Source: Strigamia acuminata (taxonomy: Eukaryota). From it: a DNA stretch of 64,000 nucleotides. Numbering within the stretch: position 1 is the first letter of the stretch; each line of letters starts with the position of its first letter. Below are positions 1 to 46,019 of this stretch, piece after piece. The stretch lies in contig OX442314.1 in assembly GCA_949358305.1 (NCBI GenBank), positions 23,808,001 to 23,872,000 on the forward strand. The letters run 5' to 3'. Under the pieces are notes generated by a model that was not told the origin of the DNA, did no database searches, and was given only the letters and a program-made list of their open reading frames with translations. The position numbers were made by a program, and so were the translations under genes.

Positions 1-101
1 TGTACGGGTACGGGTAGGGTAGGGTATGGGTAAGAACTTTTAAGGGGAGACGGGTAACGGGCGGGTAACGGGTAGAAATTTTACGCCAATGCTCCTCTCT
101 G
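1..101. mobile_element. Right end of a GGGTA(C)-rich hAT-type MITE, same family as 15201-15503; runs off the window start
   Basis: GACGGGTAACGGGCGGGTAACGGGTA...CGCCAATGCTCCTCTCTG matches the right end of the complete copy (…CGCCAATGTTATTCTCTG). It interrupts the pol 3' end of element 1 and supplies the last residues QRGALA*. Confidence 0.8.
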
Positions 102-2582: not shown

Positions 2583-3153
2583 CTACTTCTGTTTTAATGT
2601 CGAGCGTTTGTCGTAATTCTACTTGTTGTCGTCGAACTTGTTCGTTCATTCGAACCGTATCGATAGCTTTTTTTAACGTTAGATCGTCCGCCAACTGTAA
2701 TTTTTCACATAATTGACGATTTCGCAAACCCACGACGATCCGATCGCAGATCAATGTTTCGCGGAGATTATCGCTGGTCAACTTGTCCAATTCGCAATTG
2801 TCGGCCAATTCGTATAACGCGGTGATAAAATCGTCCACCGATTCGTCTTCATGTTGGATTCGTTGATTGAAACGCGCTCGTTCGAAGATCAGGTTTTTCT
2901 TTGCGACGAATAATTTATCGAAAGCTGCGATGACAGAATCGAACTTTTTTAATTGTTTCGGAGTCAGATTCGCTTTTTTTAAAACGTGTTCCGCCTTCCT
3001 GCCCATGCTGTATAACAAACCGTCGATCTTGTCTTCGTCTGTTTTCTCGCGGAGTCCAGAAAAGTTCAAAAATCGTACGAATCTCGTTTTCCATTCGGGC
3101 CAGTCGGATGGAGTTGAAAAGTCGAATTGTTCGGGAAACGGAGTGGTCGTCAT
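2583..3153 (-). pseudogene. gag: Element 1 gag, 3'-truncated (no zinc knuckle)
   Basis: PEQFDF..WPEWKTRF, FERARFNQRIQ..ESVDDFITALYELADNC and DRIVVGL are typical of Mag-like Gag. It joins pol out of frame near 2580. Confidence 0.85.
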
Positions 3154-3201
3154 CGTAGCGAAATTTCACGAATGATTTGAGTTTAATTTTAAGTCGGTTT
3201 A

Positions 3202-3358: not shown

Positions 3359-3379
3359 GTTATTCTAGATTTTTAAACC

Positions 3380-4199
3380 TGTGGTGACCCAGTTGGATAA
3401 GTGTCCCCCCAGGGCGGATACTTGTCCTATGAGTCACTATGATTAAAGAGTCGTTCCCCCCCGAGTTGGCTCCACCTCCCCATGGCAGGTGTGTGCCCCG
3501 AGGGGGAGGAAGCGGCTGGTGGTCAGCCCCCATTGGTTGATCGCCGGCCCTTCACCCCACTGCATAAAAGGCTGTGTTTCCCGCCTAAAGACAGAACTTA
3601 CACAAACGACACCAAGAACACAGCAACTACCTCACCGTCAGGCCAACTTCAACTACAAGTTAGGATTGATCGAGGATCGCTGAGTAAAGTGCAAACTGTA
3701 ACTCTCACGAAGTCACTTGCGAGCTATTCCTGCGAAAGCACGAGAATAGCCCTTGTGAAATCACCCAGAATAATCGCCCAGACGATTATTCGCCGAAGTA
3801 AGTGTCCGAGTGCTTTGTAGGGAACCCCAAAGTTCCTAGACGAGGCCTCTGCGACGCTAAACAAACCCTAGACAACAGGCACGGATAGAAGACTCGAAAG
3901 AGCATTCCACCGCGTCCGTGAAGACGAATCCGTGACGAATTAACGACAACTCGAGACGCCGCCTTTGTTCCGCCGACCACGCGGAATCGACGACGCCATC
4001 TTGAGAAATCCTTTGTTCGACGCTGACCACGTCGACTCTAGAATTATTACTGAGTGTATTTTAAAGGCATAAAGCCTGGTGAATAAATTACCTGTTTATT
4101 TACATACATTTGGTATTCATTTGGGTATTTACATAATTGATCACAGGTAAAGTATTACACGTTAGCGCTATTTAAACCTATACCAAGTAGGACGCGACA
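3380..4199 (+). repeat. 5' LTR of element 2
   Basis: Direct repeat of 15738-16557 (offset 12358); TGTGGTG...CGCGACA. Confidence 0.97.
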
Positions 4200-4201
4200 C
4201 G

Positions 4202-4219
4202 TGGGGGTCTGTCCGGGAT
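4202..4219 (+). promoter_or_regulatory. Primer-binding site, tRNA-Pro-like
   Basis: TGGGGGTCTGTCCGGGAT, 2 nt after the LTR, versus canonical TGGGGGCTCGTCCGGGAT (3 mismatches). Confidence 0.8.
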
Positions 4220-4293
4220 TTAGAAATAAATCTCAAATCTGAACTTGTGATCTCTCAATAAGATAACCCAAATCGTAGAATTACCGAAAGAAA

Positions 4294-7200
4294 ATGTCAG
4301 ACAAAGACGAGCAATCCACGTCTGAAACCGAGCAGAGAATGCCCGAGAAGGGAAAAAGGACCTCCGACTACCACCTGAGATCGGATGGTCCCGTCCCTGA
4401 AATGTCCGCAAAGGCGAAAGCCCGAGCGAATAAAAGGAGAGCGAAGGCGCAGAAAGAGGAGCAAGCTGCATCGCTCGCGGCCCTAGACGGGCCAGAGCGA
4501 GAGCGGGTTCCCTTGAATATGCAACCCTTCGAAGATACCGATCCGGAAGCCATAGAAAATCGAGAAGAAATTCGCGAGATATCGCCAGGACGAGTATCGA
4601 TATTGATGACCGAGGAGACGAATGAAGCTCCGAAAATAACGGTCACGGTCGGCACGAACCCATCGCCACCCACGGCTCAGACGTCCGTGGAGCAAACCCC
4701 ACGAAAAAACGACGGCGGGACCCCGATAACCCCCCGAGTTACGGCGAGTCCTGCGGTTGTTTCCTTCGAGGTATCTCACCTAATTCGGTTGACACGGCAA
4801 GCTGCCCAACTGAAAGCGATGATAGACATTCCAGTAGGAACGTCAGTCTGGGAATCGATTACTCTACTCACTGACGCTATCTGTGCGGCACAAGCCCCGA
4901 CGCCGGTCGCAAGACCAGCAGCGGAGACGCCCATGCCCCAGGTAACGCCCAGTGACACCGGAGGTTTCGCGCCAGACCCCAACCGAACACTTCACGAATC
5001 CAGAGAGAAGGCCCGCGAGGAAGCCAGACAAGAAGCGACTAGTCGCCAACGAAGGCTGAGCGCAGAGCGGCGAGAACTCTGGAAGGAAGAGGAAGAAAGG
5101 GAGCAACGCGAGAGAAGAACCACCGAGAGAACAGAGAAACTGGTCCAAAAAATGAGGGAAGAACGAGAAGCTAAAATTCGAAAAGAATGGAACGCAACAG
5201 TAGAAGGGCGACATCGAGAAGCTCAAGAGTACGAGGACCAATTTCAAGCGCTAATAGCTCAAAGAAAAACAGAAAAACTACAAATGTTGCGAAAAGAGGC
5301 CATTCTACAACATCAGAAATGGGAAGAACAACATCGCGAGAGGTTGAGAGAAGAGGAAGCCAGAAAAGAAAAAGAACAGTTTCTGAAAGAGAAAGAAGAG
5401 TGGGATCGAGTCAGATGGACCGAAGAGTACAAAGCGAAGAAACAAGCTATAATAGATGAGCAAAAAAGATGGGAAGCCGAAAACTGGGAGAAGGAGACAG
5501 AAAAGTTCCAGAAAGAGTACGCACAAGACGTCTCGGACAGGAAGAAAAATGAAGAAAACCTGAAACGGAAACCAGAACCCCCCAGCGGCTCTGATACCGA
5601 CACAGGAGAAGGTGCAACAAAGCCGGCAAAAACGGCGAAAAGGGGGAAATCTCAAAAGAGAGACGAGTCGGTCCCAAAAACAAAGGACCGTCACCCCTCA
5701 AAAAGATCCGAGACGGGAGCAGCCATCGACGCGTTACTCGAAAAGAAAAACGCAAATAAAAATCGGGAACGCCCCGAAAGCGAGGAAAACAGATGGCATT
5801 CTTTTTACGAGAACAACGACGGAGGGGAGCCGCCGCCATCCGGAGGCTCGAAACAGAAGAAGGCTGGCGGAGAGACCCCACCGAGAGGGCCGAGGTTTCA
5901 CCCCCAAGGAGATCCCTCCGAGCCCTCCGATTCGTCGGACGACGACCATCCGAGTCGACCGTCTACAGGGAGGAGTCAAGAAGACAGCGATGGGCACCGG
6001 TCGAACCGGCCGAATGCTTCAGACCGCTCCTCCCGGAGCTCCAACCCTCGTTCGGAGGAAGGGAACTTTCAGGACTCATCTGGCCGACATTACACGATGT
6101 CTGAGCTAGGCCGAGCCCTGCTGAACTCTTTCAGAAGAGAAGGAATCGATCTAGGCCATCCAGGCGACGAACATAATCGCGCTGGAGAGAGGGTTAAGCG
6201 TAAATATGGCGTACGAAACGAACCAAGCAGCGAAGCCACGGGTAACATCCGTTGGCAACACTACATACAAACACGATTCGACGGTTCGTGGAAGGCCGGA
6301 GACCGCTTCCTAGACGAAGTAATGCGTATCAAGAAAGCGACAAAAGCCACCGTCGCCGACATGCTAACCCACGGTCTAGTGGAGCTAACCACGGGGTCAG
6401 CTCGAGAATGGTATCAGGGACTGAAAAACCCAACCTGGGACGATTTTCTCGTCCGTTTCGATCTCCGATACGGCGAGACTCCAGACGAGATCAGTAACAA
6501 ATTACGTGGTCTACGGCAAGCCCCAGGAGAAACATTAGCCGACTACGACGCCCGAGCGAAACTCCTGTTTGCAAGAGCGCCGTACGAAATAAACCCCGCT
6601 GGTTTTACGATGATCTTTTACGGAGGATTATCGGCCCACTCGCAAAGAATTCTGCTAGACATGCGTGCACCCCGCACTGGCGATTACCAAGATGTCAGTA
6701 ACTATCTTCTAACAAACACGTTAGAAATAGAACAGCGGTATTACGCCACTCTGCCCCCGGAGGAAGCTGACGCGCACGAGAAGCGGTTGCAGACGAGCGC
6801 CGAACGCCACAAGACCTCAGAAAAATTAATGAGGCCAAGTGAATATTTGAGCGGCATAATGAGTCTCACCGAAGCATCCTTCGGACGAATGCTGACGCCT
6901 AAAGCAGGCAGTATTCTTCCAGCCAACCCGATAGCTGCCCCAAAGAAAGCACCGGCAGCGACGGCGATGCAGGTGACCTCGACGGACTCCACCCAGATGG
7001 AGAAAGTCGAAGAGACAACACCTCTCGCCACGGCTAAAGAAGAGGAGCCAGCATCGAGCGACGAGGAAGCCCTAAATGAGCACCTCGAAAACTTATCGAC
7101 GGGATGCGACGATCAAGGTCCCTATTTGCACCATGCACACCGGGCCTTGGCAATCGCACAATTCAGAGCACACGTGCAGGCAACAAAAGCGAGAGGGGCA

Positions 7201-7434
7201 TTGGGAGGAAAAAGACGATTCCCGACGCCCTTCGTCCCGAAAAAACCGGGATTCACTCCCACAGGGGATAAAAGTAACATCAAATGTTACAGCTGTGGAG
7301 AATACGGCCACTACTCAGATAAATGTGAGAAAACCGTCAAAGAAAAGGACATCATGCAAACCATGATGAAAATGATGATGGAGTTAAGAACTGATCTGGC
7401 AAAAAACTTCCAAGCGCAGGCGTCGCCGAAATAA
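4294..7434 (+). CDS. gag: Gag, 1046 aa (long coiled coil, capsid-like domain, CCHC knuckle)
   Basis: FDGSW..G..FLDEV, LRQAPGETLADY, CYSCGEYGHYSDKC; homologous to element 3 Gag. Confidence 0.92.
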   Translation: MSDKDEQSTSETEQRMPEKGKRTSDYHLRSDGPVPEMSAKAKARANKRRAKAQKEEQAASLAALDGPERERVPLNMQPFEDTDPEAIENREEIREISPGRVSILMTEETNEAPKITVTVGTNPSPPTAQTSVEQTPRKNDGGTPITPRVTASPAVVSFEVSHLIRLTRQAAQLKAMIDIPVGTSVWESITLLTDAICAAQAPTPVARPAAETPMPQVTPSDTGGFAPDPNRTLHESREKAREEARQEATSRQRRLSAERRELWKEEEEREQRERRTTERTEKLVQKMREEREAKIRKEWNATVEGRHREAQEYEDQFQALIAQRKTEKLQMLRKEAILQHQKWEEQHRERLREEEARKEKEQFLKEKEEWDRVRWTEEYKAKKQAIIDEQKRWEAENWEKETEKFQKEYAQDVSDRKKNEENLKRKPEPPSGSDTDTGEGATKPAKTAKRGKSQKRDESVPKTKDRHPSKRSETGAAIDALLEKKNANKNRERPESEENRWHSFYENNDGGEPPPSGGSKQKKAGGETPPRGPRFHPQGDPSEPSDSSDDDHPSRPSTGRSQEDSDGHRSNRPNASDRSSRSSNPRSEEGNFQDSSGRHYTMSELGRALLNSFRREGIDLGHPGDEHNRAGERVKRKYGVRNEPSSEATGNIRWQHYIQTRFDGSWKAGDRFLDEVMRIKKATKATVADMLTHGLVELTTGSAREWYQGLKNPTWDDFLVRFDLRYGETPDEISNKLRGLRQAPGETLADYDARAKLLFARAPYEINPAGFTMIFYGGLSAHSQRILLDMRAPRTGDYQDVSNYLLTNTLEIEQRYYATLPPEEADAHEKRLQTSAERHKTSEKLMRPSEYLSGIMSLTEASFGRMLTPKAGSILPANPIAAPKKAPAATAMQVTSTDSTQMEKVEETTPLATAKEEEPASSDEEALNEHLENLSTGCDDQGPYLHHAHRALAIAQFRAHVQATKARGALGGKRRFPTPFVPKKPGFTPTGDKSNIKCYSCGEYGHYSDKCEKTVKEKDIMQTMMKMMMELRTDLAKNFQAQASPK

Positions 7435-7451
7435 ATTCAGCTTCGTCTGCG
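7401..7451 (+). promoter_or_regulatory. Predicted -1 ribosomal frameshift signal (gag-pol)
   Basis: A AAA AAC in the gag frame, a 6-nt spacer, then stem GCGCAGGCG/CGTCTGCGC. The -1 frame stays open into pol. Confidence 0.8.
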
Positions 7452-10400
7452 CCAGCCGCGGAAATTAAAAAGAAGAAATATCACACTGGACCCGCAGGTC
7501 ATGCCTTGGCAGAGGCACAGATCAAAGACCGCATACAGATCGTTCCGAAGAAGGAGGAAAAAGTGACGTTAACGAGTATGCAAGTGAGAACGAAACCGGA
7601 GGTCGACATGGATTGGACGGACCTTCCGTTCAATCTGGAGGTTGAGCCCCAGACATTACGCGTATTTCACTGCAATGTCACGAAAGCACATTGCGAAACT
7701 CTGTGTATGCTGCCAGTGGAGATAGAAAGCCAAAAATTGTTCGGTCTACTGGATTCAGGAGCGGATCGTTCATTCATATCCGAAGATATAGTAAAAGACT
7801 TGGATATTGGAAAGAAGGTGGCACAAGTGAACGCGAACGTAGAATTGCTCACCGCCAACGGCTACGTCAAGCCGAAGGGCGTAGTTCGCATCATGATCGA
7901 CTGGACGGGGGGGAACCTGTCCCACCCCTTCATAGTCTTGCCATCCCACGACAAAGTATTCCTCCTAGGGATGGACATCATGGCGAAACTGAAAATTCAG
8001 CCAAACCCGATAACCCGTTCATGGAACTGGATAAGTCCCGAGGGAGAACGGTCAGTCCCCGTAGTTCCCCAAAAATTACTGGACGAAGCCAAGGACAAAG
8101 AGGAATACGGAAGAGGATTGCGAAAATTCGTCCAAGATTACGATTTCGCAGCCTTCACTCTGGAATTACAGAGGAGTAACGTCGTGGACACCCTGGTCGA
8201 GGAGGCAGCACTGCGTGTTAACGAGGCATCGCTACTAAGGCGAGTGCTTCGAAAGCATGAAAGAATTCTGACCAAGACACCTGGTCGAACGACGGAAGCA
8301 ACACACGAAATAGTCTTAACCACAGACAAGCCGATTCGAGTGCCTTACAAGGGGATGAACCCCCAGAAAAGAGACATCGTGACGCAAATGTGCCAAGACA
8401 TGCTCGACAAGGGCATAGTAACGCAAGCCCTGGGCGAATACGCGATGCGGATCGTCCTGGTAATGCGTCCAGGCTCGGAGCCTCGACTATGCATTGATTA
8501 TCGCCCCCTGAATGCGATAACAGTTATAGACCCGATTCAGATGCCGTCTATAGACTCGATCCTCCGGGAACTGAGCCCGTTCAAGTGGGTAACCACCATG
8601 GACCTGTCAAAGGGGTATTGGCAAGTGGAGCTAAAACCCGAAGACAAACTAAAAACGGCTTTCTACTCCCCGATAGGAAGACTAATGTTCAACGTGATGC
8701 CGTTCGGGCTTGTAAACGCCCCGAGCACGTTCCAGAAACTGATCGAAAGCGTGTTGGGAGATATGCTGCACGACTTCGTGTGGGCGTATCTCGACGACAT
8801 CATAATAACGTCGGACACATTCGAAGAACATATAGACCACATCGATAGAGTGGTCTCTCGCCTAGCCAAGGCAGGACTCCACATCCATCCAGGGAAGAGC
8901 AAGTTTTGCAGGAAAGAGCTTGCCTTCCTAGGATATCGAATAGGAGTCGAGGGAATCGCGATTGACCCCGAAAAAGTCAAAGCAATAAACGGATTCCCCG
9001 CCCCCGAAGATATAAAAGGTGTCCAAAGATTCATGGGCATGGTCAATTTCTTCGGCCGACTACTCTCTGGTCTGGCTGAGGTGGCCGCGCCTATAACGGA
9101 TCTCTTACGAACGGATAAAGAGTTTGAGTGGACGGTCCAGTGCGAGGCCGCATTTAGCACTATCAAGCAAATGCTGGCTGACGTCGAAAAGATGCCATTG
9201 CCGGACCTAAACCGACCGTTCGTGTTGCACACCGACGCGAGTAAAATCGGACTGGGTGCAGCCCTTCTGCAGACCCACGTGTACAACGGAATCTCGCAAG
9301 AAGTACCCTGTATGTTTATAAGCAGAAAAATACAGGGCGCGGAGAAAAATTATACGGCAACGGAACTAGAATGCCTAGCCGTAATTTGGGCTGTTCGGAA
9401 ATTTCGCGACTATCTGGAGTACACGAACTTCGAGGTTCAGACAGATCACCAGGCACTAAGCTGGTTGATGAAGCTCAAGGAACCTTCCGGCCGACTCGCA
9501 AGATGGCAACTGGAGTTAATGGCGTGCGATATAACAATTACGTACCGCCCCGGGAAGTACAATCATGTGGCCGACGCCCTCTCGAGAGCCCCAGCCTCTG
9601 ACCCCCAGGGACCAGACGACGACGGCGAGGACGACACCCACCTCTTGTACTGCCCGACTCCACGGAGAATATGGCGTTTGCGAAAGGCGAACGAGCTACC
9701 AGTGATGGAGCCTGAAGATAGAACGTTTTGTGGTTTTTGGACTCGAACATACCAGCCAGCTGGGACAAACAATTCAACATCCGAAATTCAATCTCCGCCC
9801 CCCGGAGAAACCCACAAAACACTACTACGCGCCTTCACAGCAAAAATTGAAGAAAAAACACAATACGCTCCACCCACGAGACGTGAGTTCGTCGAACACC
9901 AGGCAGCAGACACAAAATGTCAAATTATAACGCAATATTTGCTGAACGGCGAATTTCCGGAAGGGATGACAAACCCACACCGCCGGAAACAGTTCGTCAA
10001 AGAAGCAACAAGCTACCTCATAGATGATGAACTCCTGGTAAAATACCACCCGACGTTTCAAGATGACCTCAGCGGAGCGGGAAACTCGGTTAAAGTGGTC
10101 GTACCGGCATCACTGCACAACCGACTGTTGTGGCTGATGCACGGACACCCGCTCGCCAGCCATTCCGGCATAGCGAGAACCCTTTATCGAGTAAAGCAAC
10201 TTTTCTTCTGGCCGGGCGCGCGGCAAAAGATAACGAAATTTATCCGACACTGCCCCCGGTGCCAAGCATGCAGACCGCGAGATAAAGTAGCCAGAAACGC
10301 CATGTCTCTCGGACCCTACGCACCGTTTGACTGCTTAAGCATAGACTTGATGGGCCCCAAGCCCACAACGGGAAACAAGAACATGTATATTCTCGTAATT

Positions 10401-11537
10401 ATGGACGTGGCCACCCGATGGCCGGAGCTGTACGCCCTCGCGAAGCCCTCGGCTGAAAACATAGTCGAGTGCCTTTACGACGTGGCAATGCGATTTGGGT
10501 TTCCCAGAAAACTCATTTCGGATAACGGCCCCCAATTCCGATCAAGAATATATAAGGACTTCTGTAGGAAATTTAAAATGGATGCATCGAACACCTCCAC
10601 ATATAATCCTCAGACAAACCCAGTCGAGAGATTAAATAAAGATATAAAATATGCGCTGACAGTATTCACCGACATTCACAATCGATGGGACGAATACCTG
10701 CGAGAAATCGCTTTCAGCATTCGCTCAACCGTGTCACGAACACGCGAATTCTCACCGGCGTACCTCAACTTCGCCCGCGAATTAAGGATGCCATGGGACC
10801 CACGCGTTGCCGAAGCTGTTAACGTATTAGACCCGTCGAGCCCACATGAGTACGTGTGCCGGTTGGAACAGACTATATCCGACACGTACCAGCATATGAT
10901 GGCGCATATTTTCAACATGAGAGAGAGAATCGCAGATAAAGAAGGCGATCTCGCTTTCGCGAACTTTAAAGTGAATGATCTAGTGTGGAAGGAGGCACAC
11001 ACGTTGTCCAATGCAGCGAGGGGCATCGCCGCCGGTTTAGCCGACAAGAGGGACGGTCCCTACGTAATTGTGGCCGAACACGGAGGCAACGCATACCAAC
11101 TACGCCGCCTAGAGGACAACAAAAATTTTCAGTCGATACATGGCCGAGATTTAAGGCCATATCTGCCAGAATTTCCACAGGAAATTTGGCTGGAAGGTCA
11201 GACACACAGCGGCCAAGGGGGCACCGTGGTCGACACGTTCCAAAAAACAAATGAAGCTGAAAATATAGCGGAGAGCGAGGATGAATTCTTCGACGCCGAA
11301 TCCCCAGCCGACGAGGCTCCAGCTCAGCCGGAGCAAGCAATTTCGGAGAGGGAGGAAGCAGAAGAATGTACTTCTGAAATGGAAAATAAAAAAATTAATA
11401 ATGAGAAAAATGCCAACACATCGGAGATGAACGAGCAAGTAGAGTCACGATCTACGAGCACGTCGAAAATCAACCTTCGACCACGACGAAGCAATAATCC
11501 GTTCATTCGGGACGGCAAAGTCGTGGGGAAGAACTAA
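7407..11537 (+). CDS. pol: Pol (protease, RT, RNase H, integrase with GPY motif), reached by -1 frameshift
   Basis: LLDSGA, LCIDYR, YLDD, TDASK, TDHQAL, HHCC, D-D-E (SIDLMG, SDNG, PVER), RDGPY. Confidence 0.96.
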   Translation, partial: LPSAGVAEINSASSAPAAEIKKKKYHTGPAGHALAEAQIKDRIQIVPKKEEKVTLTSMQVRTKPEVDMDWTDLPFNLEVEPQTLRVFHCNVTKAHCETLCMLPVEIESQKLFGLLDSGADRSFISEDIVKDLDIGKKVAQVNANVELLTANGYVKPKGVVRIMIDWTGGNLSHPFIVLPSHDKVFLLGMDIMAKLKIQPNPITRSWNWISPEGERSVPVVPQKLLDEAKDKEEYGRGLRKFVQDYDFAAFTLELQRSNVVDTLVEEAALRVNEASLLRRVLRKHERILTKTPGRTTEATHEIVLTTDKPIRVPYKGMNPQKRDIVTQMCQDMLDKGIVTQALGEYAMRIVLVMRPGSEPRLCIDYRPLNAITVIDPIQMPSIDSILRELSPFKWVTTMDLSKGYWQVELKPEDKLKTAFYSPIGRLMFNVMPFGLVNAPSTFQKLIESVLGDMLHDFVWAYLDDIIITSDTFEEHIDHIDRVVSRLAKAGLHIHPGKSKFCRKELAFLGYRIGVEGIAIDPEKVKAINGFPAPEDIKGVQRFMGMVNFFGRLLSGLAEVAAPITDLLRTDKEFEWTVQCEAAFSTIKQMLADVEKMPLPDLNRPFVLHTDASKIGLGAALLQTHVYNGISQEVPCMFISRKIQGAEKNYTATELECLAVIWAVRKFRDYLEYTNFEVQTDHQALSWLMKLKEPSGRLARWQLELMACDITITYRPGKYNHVADALSRAPASDPQGPDDDGEDDTHLLYCPTPRRIWRLRKANELPVMEPEDRTFCGFWTRTYQPAGTNNSTSEIQSPPPGETHKTLLRAFTAKIEEKTQYAPPTRREFVEHQAADTKCQIITQYLLNGEFPEGMTNPHRRKQFVKEATSYLIDDELLVKYHPTFQDDLSGAGNSVKVVVPASLHNRLLWLMHGHPLASHSGIARTLYRVKQLFFWPGARQKITKFIRHCPRCQACRPRDKVARNAMSLGPYAPFDCLSIDLMGPKPTTGNKNMYILVIMDVATRWPELYALAKPSAENIVECLYDVAMRFGFPRKLISDNGPQFRSRIYKDFCRKFKMDASNTSTYNPQTNPVERLNKDIKYALTVFTDIHNRWDEYLREIAFSIRSTVSRTREFSPAYLNFARELRMPWDPRVAEAVNVLDPSSPHEYVCRLEQTISDTYQHMMAHIFNMRERIADKEGDLAFANFKVNDLVWKEAHTLSNAARGIAAGLADKRDGPYVIVAEHGGNAYQLRRLEDNKNFQSIHGRDLRPYLPEFPQEIWLEGQTHSGQGGTVVDTFQKTNEAENIAESEDEFFDAESPADEAPAQPEQAISEREEAEECTSEMENKKINNEKNANTSEMNEQVESRSTSTSKINLRPRRSNNPFIRDGKVVGKN

Positions 11538-11914
11538 AAATAAAAGAAAAGGTGATAACATGGAGCGGAGGCCTTGTAAAATAAAAAGATTTACTTACGA
11601 GAGCTGCTGCACATGTTGAGACGCGAAAATTTGGCTAAGTCCAAACTTCGCAACGAATTGTCGCAGTCACCACTAACAGACGAGAAGTTATGACGTATCG
11701 GGCGACCACGTGACAATGAAACCACGCGGTCGACCCCGTAGCATCATTGCCAGCACGGCGGATCTCGCAAAATACGAGACGCGTTCGAGACCCACAATTC
11801 TCAGCGTCGATGGGCCCAGTTTCCGACTGTTTTTAACACGACGAGACGTGTTTTTTGCTTCTCCCCAAAGAGAAAACAAAGACCTCTCAAAAAACTTCAC
11901 TTTCCTAAATTGAA

Positions 11915-12031
11915 ATGGCCGATCGACGCAACCCACGATTAGAGCCGAGCGCATCGTCGAGAGACGAGAGCGACGGCCTAATCGTAAATGCAGAAGAAGA
12001 TGAGAATTGGGACGAACAACCGCCGCTGCAG
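11915..12031 (+). CDS. Element 2 ORF3, predicted coding exon 1 (MADRRNPRLE...WDEQPPLQ, 39 aa)
   Basis: ATG in an AAATGG context; ends at CAG|GTAAAT donor in phase 0, matching the phase-0 acceptor at 12592. Element 3 has the same layout. Confidence 0.65.
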
Positions 12032-12592
12032 GTAAATTAGTGTGATTTCCCCAGAGAAATCACATAATTCTTTGAATCTGTTGCATCCAACCCAGATTGG
12101 AGCGTGACTTGTGACTGATATATTTCTTTCTGTTTTATTGTTGATTTAAGGCTGGCTAAAAACCCGAGAGTGGACCCAGATTCACCTCGGAGTCAAGGCC
12201 GCCAAAAAACTAGAACAAAGGAAGTGTTCGCGGAATGGCGTCGTGGCAAACCAAAACCAAAACTAAAGGTTTTCTTTCTTTTAAATTTAAACATCGTAAT
12301 AAATTAAAATACGATTAGAGTTAAAATAAAAAAGTTTAACGTAAGAAATTAAAATTTAACGATCGGTTTTGCCTGCGACCCCTTCCAAAAAAGCGGATCA
12401 CCTGAGTTCAAAAGTAGTGTTGGATCAGCGCTACGACGGCAGAGATCATCGCAGAACTGCGAAACAAGAAAATAAGACCGACGGCCGCAACAAAAGAAAG
12501 GAGTTGCTGCCACCGTCGATCTTGAGCATATTTCTGATCCCCATCGTTAACTGGGATTTATTATATTAATCTTGTGATCTAAAATTATTCAG

Positions 12593-15500
12593 GTCGACCC
12601 GCTAGAATCGTGGGACGCCCTGCCTCCGACGGCGTCAACCGCCAACAACATCTTTCGCGGAGCCCTGCCGATTTACCTGCGGCAGGCCTATCCTGCAGAG
12701 ACCAGCGCCTGGAAAATCCGATTGATGTATTCCAGGACCCTCGAGGAAAAATTCGAGCGATCAAAAACGCTGGTCGAGTGCATGACGAAGGAGATGAGGG
12801 AGCGAGTGGGGCCGCGGATCCCACCCGATGCGGATCCGCCGAGCCCCGTTTACTCCGGGTACCTGGAAGAGGCTTACCCAGGCACGGTGGCCGAGCTGCA
12901 CACCTCCCATAGGTGGAGCGAGGCCCCGACCTTGGCAGCCCGCCAGAGAATAGTGGACGACGAGATCAAACGCTTAAAGCGCACCGAGACTCACGGAGTA
13001 ACCCGAGTTCTCGAGAGAAACGGTTTCTCCCCCGAAGAAATCCGTAGATGGCTTCGCGACATCGAAGAAGATCATCTGACACCCAGATGGATACCGCCGG
13101 CGAATTTTACGGCCACGCAGTCTGAGATGTGGCAGTTATACCACGCTGGTATCCTGGGAAGTCGCCGCCATCACAGAAGATCGAAGCGTCCGGCGGAGTC
13201 CGCCCCACGCGGACCCGCACGAAGAAGACAGGCCGTCTCCCCAATAGAGGCCGGCCCGTCAACGAGCCGCGACTACCGCAGCCGCTCGAGCAGCTCCAGT
13301 TCCCGAACTCGAGTTGTCGTGCGCTCGGAGTGTCGCCGAGTAGTAACGCTCGAGCCTGCCTCGCCAGACGACGCGCGGGCTGAGCGAACAGTCGAATCTT
13401 CCGCCCACTGGGCTGCGAGGACCGAGACACACCAAGATCGAGGAAAGAAAAGATCCTCGTTGTTCATGGCGATTACCACACAGTCGTCAGATCAATCCTC
13501 GTCGCGACGAACCGTCTCATCACACCAGAGACCGAATTCTCCGACGGACGTCCCCCAGAGGACGGCCCAACGAAGATCCGTCGCAGCCAGCACCCGGAGG
13601 AATCGAAAGCGCAAAGTACGTCAGAAGTTGCGAGCACAATCCCTGATAGCTAAGGGATTAGAGAAGGAGCGAGAGATGGCCGCCGCGAAACGGTCCGAAC
13701 CCCAGAGTCTCGGACCCACGGCTGGACCGTCCAGGCGCCAAGCAGAGATTGATTTGGGAGAGTTGACGGAAGAGCAAATGTCCCCAGATGAGTCGGACAA
13801 AGATGGGCCGGTTACAAAACAGGATCTGGCCGTAGCATTGAAGAACGCCTTCCGAGGATACGCGGCCAACCGGCCGTCGGGCTCAACACCGGCTGTGCCC
13901 ACCGCGCTTGTGCCCCCACAAGTGCAATCGCGATGGCCGCCACTCCTCGAGGGTACAAACCCAGCCGTGACCGCTTGGACCCCTCCCCGGATGATTCCGG
14001 TGGGGAATCCAGCTCCGAAGCGGGTCAGATACGATAATCTACCCGGGCTGGGCCGTCCACCGTCACCCCCAACGCCACGAGTGTGTCGACCTTATCGCAA
14101 CGCCGAATGGTACGCCCAGCGAGAGATGGACGCTCGATGCCGGCGTGAAGCGGCCTATCCCCCACTCAGCGAGCTACAAGAATATCTGGCCGAATACGAG
14201 AACCCCGCGATTGCCGAGTTGGCCATACGACAGGCCGACGCCGCCCAAACCCACCACATCAATTGGGCGATCGAACAGATGCGGACGCTGTCACAACAAT
14301 TCAGTGGCAATCCGGACCGCGCTCACCCCTGCCATCGGAGCAGTTTGAATTTGGCAGTGACGAACGTCATGGCCCAGCTGCTATCCCTGGGCGTCTTCTT
14401 GGACAGTCGGCAAGCTATGGCGGCCTGGACAATCGTCGACCGTGAGGGAGTTCACCTTCCTCGGGCGTTGTACCAGGTATGGGCCGGATGGACTCCTGAG
14501 CCCGCCTCGCTGCGCTTCGACCTGGCCAGAAATACGGAAAACCCAGGCCTACAGTTTTCAAAGATGCGTTCGTTAGCATTCCGCTACCGGAACCCCGGAG
14601 TCCACCCTTCCTTGTTGCGAACAATTCGGGAGGTTCCGGAGATACCGGGAACGGCGGCGAGCCTTCCACAGGCCATCGAGACCGCCCCCCCAGAGGCGGC
14701 GGTCCAACCATACATACCGACCCCAAAGCCGGTATTCCCGAAGGAGAAGCGACACGCGAATCGACCCATATTGATTCCGAAGCGTTCCAAGCGAGGACCC
14801 CGAACTCCTCCGCTGCCCTCTCCTTCACCACCAGCGGCAGGGCTGGCCGCTCTCTCTGCAGAGCCGGCTACGCCACCGTTGGAGAGCCCAATGGAGATTC
14901 CGCTCCCACCATCGCCTCCGCCGCCCCCAGCAGCGCAGCTTTATTTGAGGCTGGGAGTGGAATACCCCTTCCTTCAGATGTCGGAGTTCACGCGACAACG
15001 CATCATTGACTCCGACGATCACGGCGAATCAATCCTCAAATGGCTAAACAGAGAAGCCCGATCCACCATGGACGCCGTCTTCCATCGCCGTATCCTACGG
15101 GCCCACAGGAAACCCGGATCGAGCGCCGAGTCGCGAAGGATCCGACTCGTCCCCGATCGATTCCCCGCGTCTACCCGGATTTGGATCCATGAGCGTACGG
15201 CAGAGAATAACATCGGGTACCCGTACCCGTACCCGTAACCGTACCCGCCCGTACCCGTAGGGTACGGGCGGGTACGGTTATAGATCTCCCGCGACTCCCG
15301 GTTACGGGTCGGGTACGGGTACGTTTTTTGTTCGTTTTTTGTACGTTTTTTGTCCTGCTGGCCACGTAATCGCGGGTACGGGTAGGGTAGGGTAGGGGGA
15401 TTCCGGGATAGCCCGGGTACGGGCGGGTACGGGTACGAAATTGTTTCGGTGACGGGTAACGGGCGGGTAACGGGTAAACTTTTTTCGCCAATGTTATTCT

Positions 15501-15690
15501 CTGGCGTACGGGGTTGGTTGGCGAGCCAGCCGGCAGTCACCCGCAGTACTTCATCAACGAGCGACAAAATCCTGCGGATCTGACAACCTCTCTGCCCCCG
15601 GATTTACCACCGCCGCCACCGGCAGTGCCACCCGTGATCCTCCGCCCATGCAGAGGAGTGCTGCCGGCTCTTCGCAGAGGAGAGCGATGA
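12593..15690 (+). CDS. Element 2 ORF3 main exon: non-Env accessory protein of unknown function, C-terminus interrupted by a MITE
   Basis: TTATTCAG acceptor, then an open frame VDPLESWDALP... continuous with ORF 12722-15238. Removing the MITE and one TSD restores WIHERTGLVGEP...GER* with the stop at 15688-15690. Homologous to 60870-63143. Confidence 0.85.
15201..15503. mobile_element. hAT-type MITE (303 bp) inserted in ORF3
   Basis: TIRs CAGAGAATAACAT/ATGTTATTCTCTG, 8-bp TSD GCGTACGG (15193-15200 and 15504-15511), internal TACCCG/CGGGTA repeats. Confidence 0.93.
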
Positions 15691-15725
15691 GAAAATTGAG
15701 ATCGCTCCGATCCGAGATCGAAGCT

Positions 15726-15737
15726 GGAGGAGGGACG
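15726..15737 (+). promoter_or_regulatory. Polypurine tract of element 2
   Basis: GGAGGAGGGACG immediately before the 3' LTR. Confidence 0.8.
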
Positions 15738-16557
15738 TGTGGTGACCCAGTTGGATAAGTGTCCCCCCAGGGCGGATACTTGTCCTATGAGTCACTATGA
15801 TTAAAGAGTCGTTCCCCCCCGAGTTGGCTCCACCTCCCCATGGCAGGTGTGTGCCCCGAGGGGGAGGAAGCGGCTGGTGGTCAGCCCCCATTGGTTGATC
15901 GCCGGCCCTTCACCCCACTGCATAAAAGGCTGTGTTTCCCGCCTAAAGACAGAACTTACACAAACGACACCAAGAACACAGCAACTACCTCACCGTCAGG
16001 CCAACTTCAACTACAAGTTAGGATTGATCGAGGATCGCTGAGTAAAGTGCAAACTGTAACTCTCACGAAGTCACTTGCGAGCTATTCCTGCGAAAGCACG
16101 AGAATAGCCCTTGTGAAATCACCCAGAATAATCGCCCAGACGATTATTCGCCGAAGTAAGTGTCCGAGTGCTTTGTAGGGAACCCCAAAGTTCCTAGACG
16201 AGGCCTCTGCGACGCTAAACAAACCCTAGACAACAGGCACGGATAGAAGACTCGAAAGAGCATTCCACCGCGTCCGTGAAGACGAATCCGTGACGAATTA
16301 ACGACAACTCGAGACGCCGCCTTTGTTCCGCCGACCACGCGGAATCGACGACGCCATCTTGAGAAATCCTTTGTTCGACGCTGACCACGTCGACTCTAGA
16401 ATTATTACTGAGTGTATTTTAAAGGCATAAAGCCTGGTGAATAAATTACCTGTTTATTTACATACATTTGGTATTCATTTGGGTATTTACATAATTGATC
16501 ACAGGTAAAGTATTACACGTTAGCGCTATTTAAACCTATACCAAGTAGGACGCGACA
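15738..16557 (+). repeat. 3' LTR of element 2
   Basis: Copy of 3380-4199, followed by TSD AACC. Confidence 0.97.
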
Positions 16558-17382
16558 AACCTTATTTGATTCACGGCACGCTGTATGTCTGTCACGGCGC
16601 ACACTGAATTCAAAAACGCCAGCACATTAATTTTTGAAATTTTTATTTTGTTATTTCTTGTATTATACTTCAATTGCAGTTTAATTTAACCTTTAGCTAT
16701 ATTTAACCACTAGCTGTATTCAAAAAGTTGAGTTTTTTAAGGGTTTTTTCGTGTTTGTCTTTTTGTTTTTCTATTTTGTAACATCACAAAACAGAAAAAA
16801 AAACACCTAAAACACGCGTCGTATCACGACTTTTTTGAATGCATTTCTATTTTTCTATTTTTTTCTCTATTCAGAGAGGTCAGAAATTCGCGCTTCGTTG
16901 GCAATTGATATTGTGAGCAGTTTTGTATTTTGTCATTAGTAAAAAAAATACGTCATATGTGGTCATAACATTATACTAGCCTCAAACATGGTATATATTA
17001 ATTAAACATCAAAATATCACAACAATAGAGGATAAATTTGCTGTGTTTGACTTCACTGTTATTTTGTGACGCTATTTCCACAGCGATCCCTATATTGCAA
17101 CCTGTAAATAAACCAGTTATGTAAATTTCCATTACACCAACGGTCACGTTATTTCCCGCTCTCCACCTGATTCCAGTTTTGATTGGACCCCGCAGATTGG
17201 GATTATTTCGGAAGAACGTTTGCTGGTTGGCTTACCAGTCTGTGAACGACTAGTCAACGTCACTAGTCCATCCTACTATTTAATCAGGTATTTTCTTTGT
17301 AAAAATCAGTTTAGACACGATCTCGAAGCTGACTACTTGTGCCAACCTTTCTTTTGATTATCCGAGTCTGATCGCATCCGAA

Positions 17383-20055: not shown

Positions 20056-23000
20056 ATGCGTGTCGAAAGAAAAAATAAAGTAATTAAAAAAATTACTAAA
20101 CAATATCAGGATTTGTACGAAGAAACAGATGTTTCGATACTAATGAATGTGATGAACACCAACTTTTCACCAATTTACCGCATGGGTTGGCTGATAATTG
20201 TTATCACTGCATTTTCTTTGTGCACATATCAGTGCTATGAAAGGATGGCTTATTACTTGAGTAAACCAATAAAAGTAAATTCTGAAATGGAAGAAAAGTC
20301 ATTGGATGATTTTCCTGTACTGCATCTAGCCACTATAGTTACGGATGACAGTCATGCTTATTATTCTGCCCGTAATGCTACTAAATACAAAGGTATTTAC
20401 TCATAACTAAACAGTAGTGTGCGTACAGTTAGTTTTCAGGCTCCATTTATTCCGGCACTAATTTCTCCCAGATTTCCACTGAATAAATATTGAATGACCC
20501 ACCAACTCCTTTTCCCACTAAACATTTGTTTTAGCCCACTTATTTAATTATATCCATAATAATTAAATTCTTCATTAAAAATAATTTATTTTTTATATTA
20601 TACAACTACTGCCATCTTAACTTTAGATGGTCTTTCGGTTATTGAATGACCCACCAACTCCTTTTCCCACTAAACATTTGTTTTAGCCCACTTATTTAAT
20701 TATATCCATAATAATTAAATTCTTCATTAAAAATAATTTATTTTTTATATTATACAACTACTGCCATCTTAACTTTAGATGGTCTTTCCCTTTTAATGGA
20801 GTATTCAATTTTTTAGGATATTGTAAAATAAGTGGACAAAAAAAATTTTTTAGTGGGAAAAATAGGGATTGAGACATTAAATATTTATTTAGTGGTAAAC
20901 TCAGGAAGAGTAGGGGTGTAATAATATATCTCTTAAGTTTTCTGACCAAGCTCAACAATCATTTACATTTAGTGCGCAAAAAATTCACATGAAATCATCT
21001 GGTGCATTTAATAATTGCAATGAAAAGTGACTTCTCTGAATAGCCTTACAGAAAATTAACTTGGCAAACCTTAGCTTAGGGAAAGGCAGGTCCAAAAGAA
21101 ATGCTGGATGCCATGGAGGTCATGGACCTTAGAATGGTCATTTAGTCGCAAGTATGTATTAATTGAGAGCAAGAAATGAATTTTTAAATTCATTTCTTGG
21201 ATATTTTGCTAAGTTATAATGCAAAATATAAATTATAAAGAGGCAATAAATGTTGTTAACTGTAGGCTCATCAATACATTGTTGGGTTTGGTCTTGTCAG
21301 CTAATTTGCCGATTGGGTTGCCTGATTGGAATAACTATAAAATCTAAACAATAGTCAATAAAATACTCGATAATAACTTATCTATTTTTTTCAGCATGCA
21401 CTCAAACCTTAACTTTTAAGTTGGATAATCACACATCACTGCGCAAAGTGATGGAATTAAGAAATTATACAAAAATGATTAAAAAAGTGTCCTTCCAATG
21501 GGTATGTAAACAGCAGTTACAGTCGGCCACTAGTGACAAAATTATGAAAAACCTGTTAAATGCAGAAATATTTCAATTGATATTTTTTCCCCATCTCATT
21601 ATAAGTTGCTAACATCTATTTTACAGGGAACCAAAGTGTACAACAATTTGTTTCAAGCATATGAAAAATATACCCTCTATTCCAGTGTAACAAAAATTGA
21701 AAGTGGTATGTCTTAACTTATTTTTACATATTGTATAAACAATGCCGCATTATCGTATCATTCGTATAGTCCAGGGTCCCAAATTTTTAGGGGGTCCCAT
21801 TTCACTCAATAAATTATCAAAAAATAAAAAGTTAATGAATTAGATATTCATTTGGTGCTTGAGGGCCTAGGGTCCCCAAACACCATGATGCGCCAGTGTG
21901 AGTAAATATAACAATATTTTGATTTTACAAAAATTCTCTAATTCTCTGATTACACAGTTAAAAAAGTATCGGTTGGTCCAAAAGCCAGGCTTACAGTTAA
22001 GACACACACAACTGAAAACTTTCCTAGGAATCAGTTAATTGTACATGTAAGTGGAAACTAAACCAATAAAACTTGTAAACTACAAACGAAATAAATATCT
22101 TCCAGACGTATCTGGCAGCAAAAAACTACCACCTGTCCTTTATACCTGCAACAGCATCTCGTTTGGGTCACATGTATTATCAAAATGAGCTTTCTTTTAC
22201 AAGTAGAAGAGTGAGTGAATAAAACATTGGAAAGTTTTATTATCAAATTCACTCATTTCAAATTTTCTAGTACTCATTTTTGAACAGGAAGACAGTTCCG
22301 TGTTGGAATATATCAGCCATGGAAGAGTGCCACGAAAAATGTTATTTAGACGAAATAAAGAAACAAAATTTTTCATGTCAGTAAGTACACTAGTGTTGGC
22401 AGTGGTGATTTTACAGCATTTGAGGCCAGTGCAAGGAGTACGAAATAGGTGTAAACTGTGTCCGAGATTCCTGATTCCCAAAGATTCCAACAGATTCTCA
22501 ACCATGAGAATTGAAATAGGTTGGAACAGATCACATGTTTTAAACATTGAAATAGATTAATCGATTAATCGAAAAGTTTATAAAAATCCAAATTTTCATG
22601 AGCACATCATTGTTTGAACTTGGTGCCGGTCGAGGTATCCCCTGTCATCGAGGACGTCGCGTACGTGTGTCCTGTATGCGGCCAGATGTTTTCGCTGCAC
22701 GACCGGCTCGCCAAACACATGGCGAGTCGGCACCGGCACCGCGGACCGCACCGGAACGCGTGCAGCGCGTCAGAAGTGCCTGGCGGACTGGGCGAGGGCG
22801 GCGGGTTGTTTTTTAAAATTCAGAGTGGAATTGGAACCACCCTAAACATCAAATATCGAATATTTTGGAGTGGAATTGAGAGGGGGCGGAATTGGGATGA
22901 GCTGATTTGAATTGCATCGAGGCGGAATTGCAACTTTTTTTTACTGAAAGGGGCGGTTTAGGAACTGGTGAAATTGATTCTGGCGGAAATGAACCCCGCC

Positions 23001-31101: not shown

Positions 31102-31235
31102 TGTGAGAATGATTTAGACATACGGTTAAGTTGAATGTCTGAACTAGACTGATTTATTATCTCAAAGCATAGAACAAATCCAAATTACATAGAACAAGTC
31201 ATCGAAAAGACCCCCAGGGGGCGCTATCGCTTACA
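31102..31235 (-). repeat. 3' LTR of element 4
   Basis: Direct repeat of 36108-36241 with TG...CA termini. Confidence 0.96.
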
Positions 31236-31285
31236 CGACCCCCCTTTTGGGTTGTCGTCCTCGACAACAATACAAAATTACAAAA

Positions 31286-35806: not shown

Positions 35807-36107
35807 TACGTCCGCCACGTGTTTCGCAAAATTTTCAACAACAATCACCGATCTCGTCAACCACCGACAATGATCACCAACAACTTTTCAACTGCTTATA
35901 TACGTCTCCGTCTCCAAATCGAACGTTATCTGGACGTTTTCCACGTGTAACGCGCGTCGTCTCCTTCGTCTCCGTCCCCAAATTTCTCCGCAACTCGATT
36001 TTCGAAAATGTTAAGCCCACGCGCTCTTCATCCAAATCGCCGTCATCAATTTCCAACTGTTTCAACTATTTCACCTTCCCCAAAGTCTTTTTATGTCGAC
36101 TGCGCCA

Positions 36108-36241
36108 TGTGAGAATGATTTAGACATACGGTTAAGTTGAATGTCTGAACTAGACTGATTTATTATCTCAAAGCATAGAACAAATCCAAATTACATAGAA
36201 CAAGTCATCGAAAAGACCCCCAGGGGGCGCTATCGCTTACA
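36108..36241 (-). repeat. 5' LTR of element 4
   Basis: Adjacent to the PBS; TSD AAGAC at 36242-36246. Confidence 0.96.
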
Positions 36242-45900: not shown

Positions 45901-46019
45901 ACTGCAAGTACGAAATTAAACATAAAACAAATTTTTCTTCAAAAAACAATTTTATATTTTTTTATTTTTTATTTTGCAAGACAATTGTCAAAACGATATA
46001 ATTGAACAGAATTGTTCTT

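Follow-up and report, generated by a model that had tools for sequence, protein, structure and literature searches.

A 64,000-nt window of Strigamia acuminata DNA contains, at positions 11915-15690, a third open reading frame (ORF3) that is a post-pol gene of a 13.2-kb Ty3/gypsy-type LTR retrotransposon, hereafter element E2. ORF3 is a real gene whose frame is under purifying selection among the family copies of E2, and it represents a new orphan family that occupies a known slot; the open reading frame annotated for it, 12722-15238, has neither the right start nor the right end. The full reading that we propose, in which ORF3 is a selected, non-envelope third gene that is interrupted by a miniature inverted-repeat transposable element (MITE) and predicted to be expressed solely from a spliced mRNA, is in our judgment poised evenly between right and wrong. 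ORF3 is an accessory gene of a known kind that does not encode an envelope protein, and its product may be a basic nuclear helper.

The extra genes of LTR retrotransposons are a source of new biology, with captured envelopes, factors for RNA export, and enzymes among them, and most of these genes escape ORF finders or are given wrong limits by them. ORF3 comprises ~970 codons, is selected in a very young family, and has essentially no relatives among 1.8 billion representative proteins. Were its product a nuclear RNA regulator, it would represent a second, independent Rev-like solution in Ty3/gypsy elements beside the CERV protein of Cer1.

The carrier element

E2 is a very young, freshly inserted Ty3/gypsy-type LTR retrotransposon, and all of its own features given below lie on the plus strand. 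Its 820-bp LTRs (5' LTR, 3380-4199, TG...CA, reading TGTGG...GACA; 3' LTR, 15738-16557, delimited by self-BLAST and sequence) have 0 mismatches over 820 positions, and a 4-bp target duplication, AACC, flanks the element at 3376-3379 and 16558-16561. The youth of the family follows from the identity of these LTRs together with the numerous near-identical copies. The primer-binding site (TGGGGGTCTGTCCGGGAT, 4202-4219), which we take to resemble the 3' end of tRNA-Pro, begins 2 bases past the 5' LTR, and the polypurine tract (GAAGCTGGAGGAGGGACG, 15720-15737) adjoins the 3' LTR; both were read in the sequence. The gag gene (ORF1) occupies 4294-7434 within a frame open over 4279-7434 and its residues 1001-1016 match zf-CCHC weakly, under the Pfam cut-off (E 0.0021), and pol (7395-11537) follows in the -1 frame relative to gag with a 40-nt overlap. 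Pfam matches in pol to an aspartyl protease (8e-7), RVT_1 (5e-30), RT_RNaseH (9e-35), Integrase_H2C2 (2e-16), and rve (9e-14) confirmed the Ty3/gypsy order of protease, RT, RNase H, and integrase, which, together with the TG...CA LTRs and their duplication, the primer-binding site, and the polypurine tract, places E2 in this Metaviridae-type group. The window holds another such element (E1), whose gag is 23% identical to that of E2 over 470 aa and whose pol is 50% identical over 1308 aa; in both of these gypsy-type elements ORF3 lies between pol and the 3' LTR.

Reading frame and selection

The main body of ORF3 up to the MITE spans 12593-15200. A default ORF finder returned the same interval as the ORF track of the initial annotation, 12722-15238, with a TTG start, and the proposal that the frame is already open from an acceptor at 12593 agrees with a stop-to-stop frame that is open from 12578. 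The SWDALP / IFRG.LP block that had been placed past this acceptor was found at residues 6-26 after it, the basic tract that had been pointed out (RRNRKRKVRQKLR) is present in ORF3, and a recount gave 967 residues for the protein that had been put at about 967 aa with exon 1 included. The protein is laid out as a conserved N-domain (~1-112), a long, low-complexity basic middle, a helical mid-domain (~525-644), a Pro-rich stretch, and a conserved C-domain (~784-869).

Family copies were compared using contigs from two runs of the same study (X1 and X2), neither of which is on record as RNA. Across 12593-15200, 25 of the 35 variants listed among these copies were synonymous and 23 of the 35 fell at codon position 3 (binomial p = 9e-5), and no indel rows were found inside this interval among the family copies listed in the two runs.

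Homologues of ORF3

ORF3 had been described as the second member of an ORF3 family, and its N-domain of roughly 100 residues is similar to that of the E1 ORF3 (60870-63143). The E2 and E1 proteins align in two segments, one of 92 aa with 34% identity (4e-12) and one of 88 aa with 26% identity (6e-5), and a metagenome protein (P0001) matches the E2 ORF3 at 30% in a segment of 104 aa (5e-13) and at 22.5% in one of 120 aa (2e-6). Pairwise E values for the N-domain among the three proteins run from 3e-10 to 5e-13, and their three-way alignment holds 23 invariant columns, with the pattern W..P, G.LP, A...R, L..C...E.R, D.DPP.P..S..L....P.T..E. Judged by sequence similarity, the N-, mid-, and C-terminal blocks of ORF3 are homologous in the two other proteins. 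ORF3 evolves as fast as gag, with 26-34% identity confined to short blocks between E2 and E1 vs 50% for pol.

P0001, a hypothetical protein from a cluster of 1 member on one 2.9-kb contig, was the sole match in an exhaustive phmmer search of 1.84 billion representatives. A profile of the N-domain run against longer proteins recovered P0001 again and nothing else, word-indexed searches with the whole ORF3 protein and with a 3-sequence full-length profile returned no match, the ESM Atlas yielded no usable match for ORF3 and generic retroelement clusters alone for pol, and the metagenome and viral contigs that were scanned contained no ORF3 relative. ORF3 is likewise without similarity to the gag and pol of E2 and E1, and an origin of the gene by internal duplication was rejected on this ground.

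The upstream exon and the predicted intron

As the initial annotation had proposed, the true start of ORF3 lies upstream of the ORF-finder start: the first in-frame ATG is at 12725, the conserved domain precedes it, and a start there would lose 7 invariant positions. An in-frame stop (12575-12577) lies 11 codons ahead of the conserved N-domain with no ATG between, and the acceptor TTATTCAG|G sets the exon start at 12593, 6 codons ahead of this domain. E2 and E1 are alike in this arrangement: in both, the invariant Trp follows an in-frame stop by 11-12 codons, and the interval contains a (Y)nCAG|G acceptor and no ATG. An upstream exon is needed because the conserved N-domain follows an acceptor and an in-frame stop without an ATG.

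Such an exon would be superfluous if ORF3 were translated from unspliced RNA, starting at ATG 12725 or at a near-cognate codon past the stop at 12575-12577, with the open frame ahead of ATG 12725 being in that case a relic. P0001 requires no intron, its frame being continuous upstream of the domain with a Met at residue 20, and both elements offer ATT and TTG codons in the stretch that leads from the stop to the conserved block. However, the invariant positions forfeited by a start at 12725 belong to a domain common to three ~30%-identical proteins, the first in-frame ATG of the E1 ORF3 is more than 100 codons in, and a consensus acceptor sits inside the same 33-nt gap in E2 and E1; we therefore regard translation from unspliced RNA as very unlikely.

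The best candidate for the upstream part of the gene is a predicted exon 1 at 11915-12031 (117 nt, 39 codons, starting MADRR), followed by a predicted phase-0 intron at 12032-12592 (561 nt, GT..AG, AT-rich). The sequence features of a GT-AG intron are present at these positions, namely a consensus donor and acceptor, a fitting phase (the 12031/12593 junction is phase 0), and an open exon 1. ATG 11915 carries A at -3 and G at +4. No donor from the pol stop to the acceptor outscores CAG|GTAAAT at 12032, which ranks in the top 0.3% of the 3223 GT sites of the window with a score of 5.3 on a crude matrix. GC content is 0.56 in exon 1 vs 0.39 in the predicted intron, and codon usage in exon 1 has a log-odds of +0.26 per codon in the 11915 frame and is negative in the other two frames. 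Exon 1 has a single listed variant, the synonymous 12026 C>T, and is free of listed indels: of the 11 indel rows among the family copies, 7 fall in the predicted intron and the other 4 in 11851-11890, upstream of the ATG. Chance alone would place only ~1.2 of 11 rows in 117 nt, however, which makes the indel-free exon a weak argument. In one diverged contig the match breaks off 5 nt short of the acceptor junction, with a loose end at 12588. The X1 and X2 contigs are without a joint from 12031 to 12593, an observation that says nothing on splicing.

E1 has two in-phase candidates for exon 1, at 60141-60254 (with the better donor) and at 60354-60422, both of which are coding-like, and the exon-1 peptides of E2 and E1 are unalignable past their starts (MADRR vs MAGRK). 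Since there are two candidates in E1 and the peptides do not align, the comparative support favors an upstream exon in general and not the exon at 11915-12031 in particular. The spacers between pol and ORF3 of E2 and E1 could not be aligned as DNA. The motif TGACGT, which stands just past the pol stop in both elements, was considered as a sign of an internal promoter and set aside, as its 20 occurrences in the window vs 12.4 expected are not telling.

In the expression model that we propose, translation of ORF3 would start at ATG 11915 within exon 1 and the 561-nt intron would be spliced out. The transcript would most likely be subgenomic, arising either by initiation downstream of pol or by an extra splice that adds the LTR leader.

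Alternative routes of expression

A retrovirus-style route would instead join the 12593 acceptor, or one just upstream of ATG 11915 (for example TTGCTTCTCCCCAAAG|A near 11871), to a donor in the LTR leader or in early gag. This would yield a classical subgenomic spliced RNA from the LTR promoter or, from a gag donor, a fusion of the Gag N-terminus to ORF3 as in CERV. Donor-like sites exist in the leader (3798, GAA|GTAAGT, 4.6; 4147, CAG|GTAAAG, 4.1) and in gag (4942, CAG|GTAACG, 3.4), the last of these being phase 0 with respect to the gag ATG at 4294. There are also precedents, as exons 1-3 of cerv are described as lying in the gag reading frame (PMC10309623) and spliced messages are described as typical for the ORF3s of LTR retrotransposons (PMC5408684). 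In E1, however, the only early-gag donor scoring at least 3 is out of phase (52110, phase 1), and a direct splice from the leader to 12593 would not account for the well-placed ATG and the coding-like codon usage of exon 1. Our main explanation is compatible with splicing from the leader to an acceptor ahead of 11915, which is no true rival to it. We consider the retrovirus-style route, taken as a whole, to be rather unlikely.

A second route had been suggested in the initial annotation, with a start at ATG 11988 and exons at 11988-12031, 12151-12268, and 12593 onward, which would give a very basic N-terminus. Its exons are indeed frame-consistent (44 + 118 nt), and the donor of the middle exon, AAG|GTTTTC, is as weak as had been stated, with a crude score of -4.1; as a competitor to exon 1 the route is disfavored by this donor and by codon usage. 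The candidate middle exon (12151-12268) is frame-consistent only with ATG 11988, and joining it to exon 1 in the 11915 frame leads to stops. The stretch right before the conserved Trp is basic in P0001 as well, and 12151-12268 is without indel rows among the copies, with one contig being homologous up to 12263 and diverging thereafter. Codon usage over 11988-12031, however, scores +0.44 per codon in the 11915 frame vs -0.09 in the 11988 frame, the middle exon scores about 0, and ATG 11988 lies downstream of ATG 11915, whose context is good. We find the second route highly improbable and retain exon 1 at 11915-12031 as the predicted start.

Protein properties and possible function

The ORF3 protein has a pI of 10.0, basic NLS-like clusters, and a Cys content of 0.6%. 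AlphaFold2 models built on 3-row alignments had a mean pLDDT of 39.8 (869-aa model) and 56.5 (190-aa model), and the predicted structure is mostly helical or disordered, at the low confidence of the model. Foldseek against the PDB with the 190-aa low-confidence model returned a best hit with an E of 1.2 and a TM of 0.24, which is meaningless. NES-like patterns in ORF3 are unspecific, and the idea of an RS domain was dropped, the 22 RS/SR dipeptides vs 18.4 expected from composition not constituting an enrichment.

The env genes of insect errantiviruses (gypsy) and of retroviruses follow pol and are expressed by splicing, and ORF3 resembles them in its post-pol position and in its predicted splicing. 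Its location between pol and the 3' LTR, the place of env in these groups, could suggest a degenerate or atypical envelope-type gene. A Kyte-Doolittle hydropathy scan with a 19-residue window, however, peaked at 1.65 in E2 and 1.09 in E1 and revealed neither a signal peptide nor a membrane span in ORF3, the N-terminus is acidic/basic and not hydrophobic, and the high pI is a further point against an envelope protein. No match of any kind, and hence no env family, was found in Pfam at E <= 10 for the E2 ORF3, the E1 ORF3, or P0001, and a PDB sequence search gave no ORF3 match at E <= 1. Lacking a signal peptide and a membrane anchor, ORF3 is not an Env, and we hold the envelope reading to be extremely unlikely.

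Rev and Rex of complex retroviruses are small basic nuclear regulators that handle intron-containing genomic RNA. ORF3 is far larger than Rev, and any arginine-rich motif or NES in it would be putative. A further parallel is CERV of the Caenorhabditis elegans element Cer1, described as a nuclear non-Env protein that is expressed from a spliced mRNA and needed for genomic-RNA export (PMC10309623). The same source gives CERV as a protein of 517 aa encoded by 5 exons, the first three in the frame of gag, with a G-protein-like domain, a Cys-rich loop, and a candidate NLS, and portrays it as lineage-restricted and fast-evolving, with no homology beyond close relatives (PMC10309623). In the respects described there, ORF3 is like CERV in being a non-envelope accessory protein of a Ty3/gypsy-type element, in its spliced mRNA (predicted for ORF3), in its NLS-like basic clusters, and in being fast-evolving and narrowly restricted, and unlike CERV in lying wholly downstream of pol, in its length of ~970 aa, in being Cys-poor, and in its mostly helical or disordered predicted structure. 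The ORF3s of LTR retrotransposons in bdelloid rotifers, reported as typically "expressed from spliced messages" and as Env-like fusion proteins, GDSL esterases, or DEDDy exonucleases (PMC5408684), share with our ORF3, on that description, the status of an additional ORF placed after pol and ahead of the 3' LTR, diverse non-env content, and an expectation of splicing; ORF3 differs from them in matching no Pfam family. ORF3 had no likeness to CERV, Rev, or another known regulator by sequence (phmmer, PDB) and no fold match (Foldseek, low-confidence model).

We hypothesize that the ~970-residue, very basic, largely disordered ORF3 protein works inside the nucleus on RNA of the element itself, with a role in the export, splicing balance, or packaging of unspliced genomic RNA comparable to that of CERV in Cer1 or Rev in HIV. 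A nuclear RNA-handling role, like the nuclear or nucleic-acid-binding function that the initial annotation had read from the basic tract, is suggested by composition only (pI 10, basic clusters) and is possible but on the doubtful side. The more specific proposition, that ORF3 founds an undescribed family of nuclear regulators, an independently evolved CERV/Rev-like factor in an animal Ty3/gypsy lineage with its own intron-containing unit downstream of pol and with control over genomic-RNA export or splicing, appears unlikely to us. A tentative place must also be given to other functions, such as a cofactor for the structure or assembly of the particle, a factor that directs integration to chromatin, or a suppressor of host silencing. 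Purifying selection tells only that the element needs ORF3, a basic disordered protein with NLS-like clusters would fit chromatin tethering or nucleic-acid chaperoning equally well, and the gag-like pace of its evolution would fit an arms race with the host; against this, nothing specific favors any of these roles, no domain was found, and a likeness to the gag or pol of either element is lacking.

The MITE and the displaced 3' end

The end of ORF3 is displaced by a 303-bp MITE at 15201-15503, which has perfect 13-nt terminal inverted repeats (CAGAGAATAACAT) and an 8-bp target-site duplication read in the sequence (GCGTACGG, 15193-15200 and 15504-15511); the terminal-repeat sequence has only these 2 matches in the window. 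The insertion adds 311 bp, which is not a multiple of 3, and the displaced 3' end of ORF3 lies at 15512-15690 on the plus strand (59 codons and TGA 15688-15690), 47 nt ahead of the 3' LTR. The frame is open over 15514-15690 in the phase that the upstream frame would have without the insertion. The MITE brings a stop at 15236-15238 into the E2 copy, the protein of which would terminate after 13 codons of MITE sequence, without its last 59 residues. The ORF3 tail past the MITE has no significant similarity to the tail of the E1 ORF3, both being Pro-rich.

The displacement had been proposed in the initial annotation, and insertion-free copies were found in both runs. An X2 contig joint from 15192 to 15504, with a depth of 5096 and 8 shared bases, skips exactly 311 bp, and loose ends at 15504 in X1 carry 9 bases that precede the first copy of the duplication. 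Depth across the MITE is ~10-fold below that of its flanks, and contigs also join across it.

MITEs of the hAT superfamily have 8-bp target duplications and terminal repeats starting YARNG, and the MITE in ORF3 resembles them in its 8-bp duplication, its 13-nt repeats starting CAGAG, and its 303 bp of non-coding sequence, which suggests that it is hAT-like. Since its insertion postdates a very recent retrotransposition, the hAT-type and retrotransposon families have likely both been recently active. In the contigs, the MITE was also seen with internal variants and with other flanks.

The element and its third gene

The 13.2-kb element under study, E2, is a full-length, very recently inserted Ty3/gypsy-type LTR retrotransposon, as indicated by its 820-bp LTRs (3380–4199 and 15738–16557) with TG...CA ends and 0 mismatches, the 4-bp duplication AACC on each side, a primer-binding site 3' of the 5' LTR (4202–4219), a polypurine tract adjoining the 3' LTR (15720–15737), a gag-like ORF1 (4294–7434), and an ORF2 in the −1 frame (7395–11537) that encodes protease, reverse transcriptase (RT), RNase H, and integrase. 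A second gypsy-type element in the window, E1 (LTRs at 50451–51210 and 63241 to the window end), has the same layout, with pol 50% identical between the two over 1308 aa.

ORF finders misplace both boundaries of ORF3, the gene that follows pol, in the E2 copy, the cause being a predicted intron on the 5' side and a recently inserted MITE on the 3' side. All sequence statements of the initial annotation were reproduced, including the default ORF call (12722–15238, within a frame open already from 12578) and a total of 967 residues when a proposed first exon is included; its interpretation was partly supported, as detailed for each end of the gene below.

Relatives of the ORF3 protein

The E2 gene had been proposed as a second member of an ORF3 family, and this was borne out by two blocks common to it and the E1 ORF3 (60870–63143), one N-terminal (34% identity over 92 aa, E 4e-12) and one C-terminal (26% over 88 aa, E 6e-5). 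Searched exhaustively with phmmer, 1.84 billion representatives returned one match only, P0001, a 525-aa hypothetical protein on a 2.9-kb metagenome contig; E2 ORF3 resembles it in the N-domain (E 5e-13) and, at E2 residues 525–644, in a mid-domain (E 2e-6). The N-domain alignment of the three proteins contains 23 invariant columns. Word-indexed, profile, ESM Atlas, metagenome-contig, and viral-contig searches yielded no further relative, and there was no match in Pfam at E ≤ 10 or among PDB sequences at E ≤ 1. Kinship with gag or pol was considered and rejected, ORF3 being unrelated to either; its rate of divergence equals or exceeds that of gag. A text search of the literature, which is blind to sequence-level matches, found no description of the family. 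ORF3 is a new orphan family of proteins that occupies an architectural slot already known.

Variation among family copies

ORF3 is a real gene. Among the 40 variants listed of 84 in family copies, 35 fell in 12593–15200, one in the candidate first exon, one upstream, and three in the LTR; of the ORF3 variants, 23/35 were at codon position 3 and 25/35 were synonymous (binomial p = 9e-5). No indels within ORF3 were among the listed variants; the sole one near its end removes 3 nt at the stop codon. The initial annotation would have been refuted by family copies lacking an open frame over 12593–12721; the two variants listed there, a Pro>Ser change and a C>T at 12718 that is synonymous when read by hand (ATC>ATT), both leave it open.

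The GC content of ORF3 is ~0.09–0.10 above that of pol in both elements (12593–15199; 60870–63140), with third-position values of 0.64 vs. 0.56 in E2 and 0.57 vs. 0.42 in E1, a hint that its origin, or the constraint on it, differs.

The 3' end of ORF3

A MITE with perfect 13-nt terminal inverted repeats occupies 15201–15503 and is flanked by the 8-bp target duplication GCGTACGG; the inserted 311 bp shift the ORF3 frame, and reading in this E2 copy ends after 13 codons of MITE sequence. The region was compared with contigs of two public sequencing runs from one study, X1 and X2. In a contig of X2, 15192 is followed directly by 15504, with 311 bp missing and 8 bases common to both sides, the pattern left by an empty site that has a single duplication copy, and two X1 records ending at 15504 bear the 9 bases immediately 5' of the first duplication copy. 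Sequencing depth on the MITE was roughly ten-fold below that beside it. The MITE is an insertion and not part of ORF3. The claim that it hides the gene's end was upheld both by these insertion-free copies and by the displaced 3' frame, which is open over 15514–15690 and, with the insertion taken out, exactly in phase with the upstream frame, and which ends 47 nt 5' of the 3' LTR.

The MITE's 8-bp duplication and repeats starting CAGAG are consistent with hAT-type elements. Its body is composed of GGGTAC/CGGGTA-like short repeats. In run contigs it occurs between other flanks too and in several versions of different internal length, which places it in a family present elsewhere in the genome.

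The 5' end of ORF3

In both elements an in-frame stop lies 11–12 codons 5' of an invariant Trp, the gap between them has no ATG, and the same short gap contains a consensus acceptor (TTATTCAG/G in E2, giving the exon start at 12593 that had been proposed, and TAATTGCAG/G in E1). Starting at 12725, where E2 has its earliest in-frame ATG, would lose seven invariant positions. An upstream coding exon would therefore be required, and this is the strongest part of the initial annotation's interpretation; which exon it is remains a matter of prediction.

The predicted exon 1 of E2 runs from the ATG at 11915 to 12031, in phase 0 with donor CAG/GTAAAT. On a crude scoring matrix, this donor was the best of the 1-kb interval between the pol stop and the acceptor (5.3, top 0.3% of 3223 GT sites). 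The candidate exon has a GC content of 0.56 vs. 0.39 for the predicted intron, codon usage that is positive in its own frame only (+0.26 per codon), and a single listed variant, which is synonymous. All 11 of the 11 indels recorded over 11480–12780 in family copies fall outside it (four upstream of the ATG, seven in the predicted intron), a weak argument given that about one would be expected in the exon by chance. One diverged contig loses homology 5 nt 5' of the acceptor junction, as would be expected for an intron–exon border. Within the predicted intron, some family copies have unrelated sequence in place of an AT-rich stretch (12264–12390), the contigs diverging past 12263 and regaining homology at 12391.

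An alternative splicing route through 11988–12031 and 12151–12268 to 12593 is frame-consistent, as had been stated, but is disfavoured by its weak donor (−4.1) and by the codon usage of 11988–12031, which speaks for the 11915 frame. ORF3 could instead be spliced from a donor in the LTR leader or early gag, where donor-like sites occur, the one at 4942 being in phase with the gag ATG. These sites, together with the continuous frame of P0001 (Met 47 residues ahead of the Trp) and the presence of two in-phase, coding-like exon candidates in E1 (60141–60254, donor TTG/GTGAGT; 60354–60422, donor GCA/GTAAGG), call for caution in choosing 11915–12031 as exon 1.

The first E1 candidate, from the ATG at 60141 to the donor at 60255, spans 114 nt in phase and is coding-like in its own frame only. 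An open stretch of 96 nt (60327–60422) could bridge the gap between it and the acceptor at 60870, and a reading with three exons would thus also be in frame. The CRE-like motif TGACGT occurs just 3' of the pol stop in both elements (11691, 60094, and 60122); with 20 occurrences over the window vs. 12.4 expected, it shows no enrichment and does not count as evidence for an internal promoter.

Possible role of the ORF3 protein

Pro, Arg, Ala, and Ser abound in the ORF3 protein, which has a pI of 10.0 and contains several basic clusters (e.g., RRNRKRK and KRSKR). Neither a signal peptide nor a membrane span is present, and an envelope protein was rejected on these grounds. RS dipeptides were not enriched, and NES-like patterns were unspecific. 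Low-confidence AlphaFold models suggest helical conserved blocks with long disorder between them, and a Foldseek search of PDB with one of these models found no fold match.

The closest functional precedent is CERV of Cer1, described as a nuclear, non-Env product of a spliced mRNA that is needed to export unspliced genomic RNA (PMC10309623). A study in bdelloid rotifers describes ORF3 slots as housing very diverse genes, with ORF3s typically expressed from spliced messages (PMC5408684). On these grounds it is tentatively proposed, with rather low confidence, that the ORF3 protein acts within the nucleus on RNA of its own element; chromatin tethering, particle assembly, or suppression of silencing are rival functions.

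Surroundings of the elements

Host DNA of the window is AT-rich (GC 0.31–0.40 at 16–30 kb) and contains animal-type genes, namely an SGT1-like gene, a tandem array of ASC/ENaC-channel fragments, and an LRR protein; the several retroelements are richer in GC. Next to the 5' LTR of E2, a gypsy-type pol with RT, RNase H, and integrase (81–3165, − strand) heads to the window start and is truncated, and a small 5.1-kb gypsy-type element (31102–36241, − strand) has identical 134-bp LTRs and a single 1533-aa gag-pol frame without a third ORF. The ASC/ENaC-channel exon unit is present in four diverged tandem copies over 22000–47200 (73–92% identity, spacing 5–12 kb), the fourth preceded by a copia-type gag/Pol_BBD frame at 44590–46005. 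The window also contains a perfect 149-bp tandem duplication (20488–20636 / 20640–20788) and a 149-bp inverted repeat of 95% identity (26631–26779 / 26874–27022).
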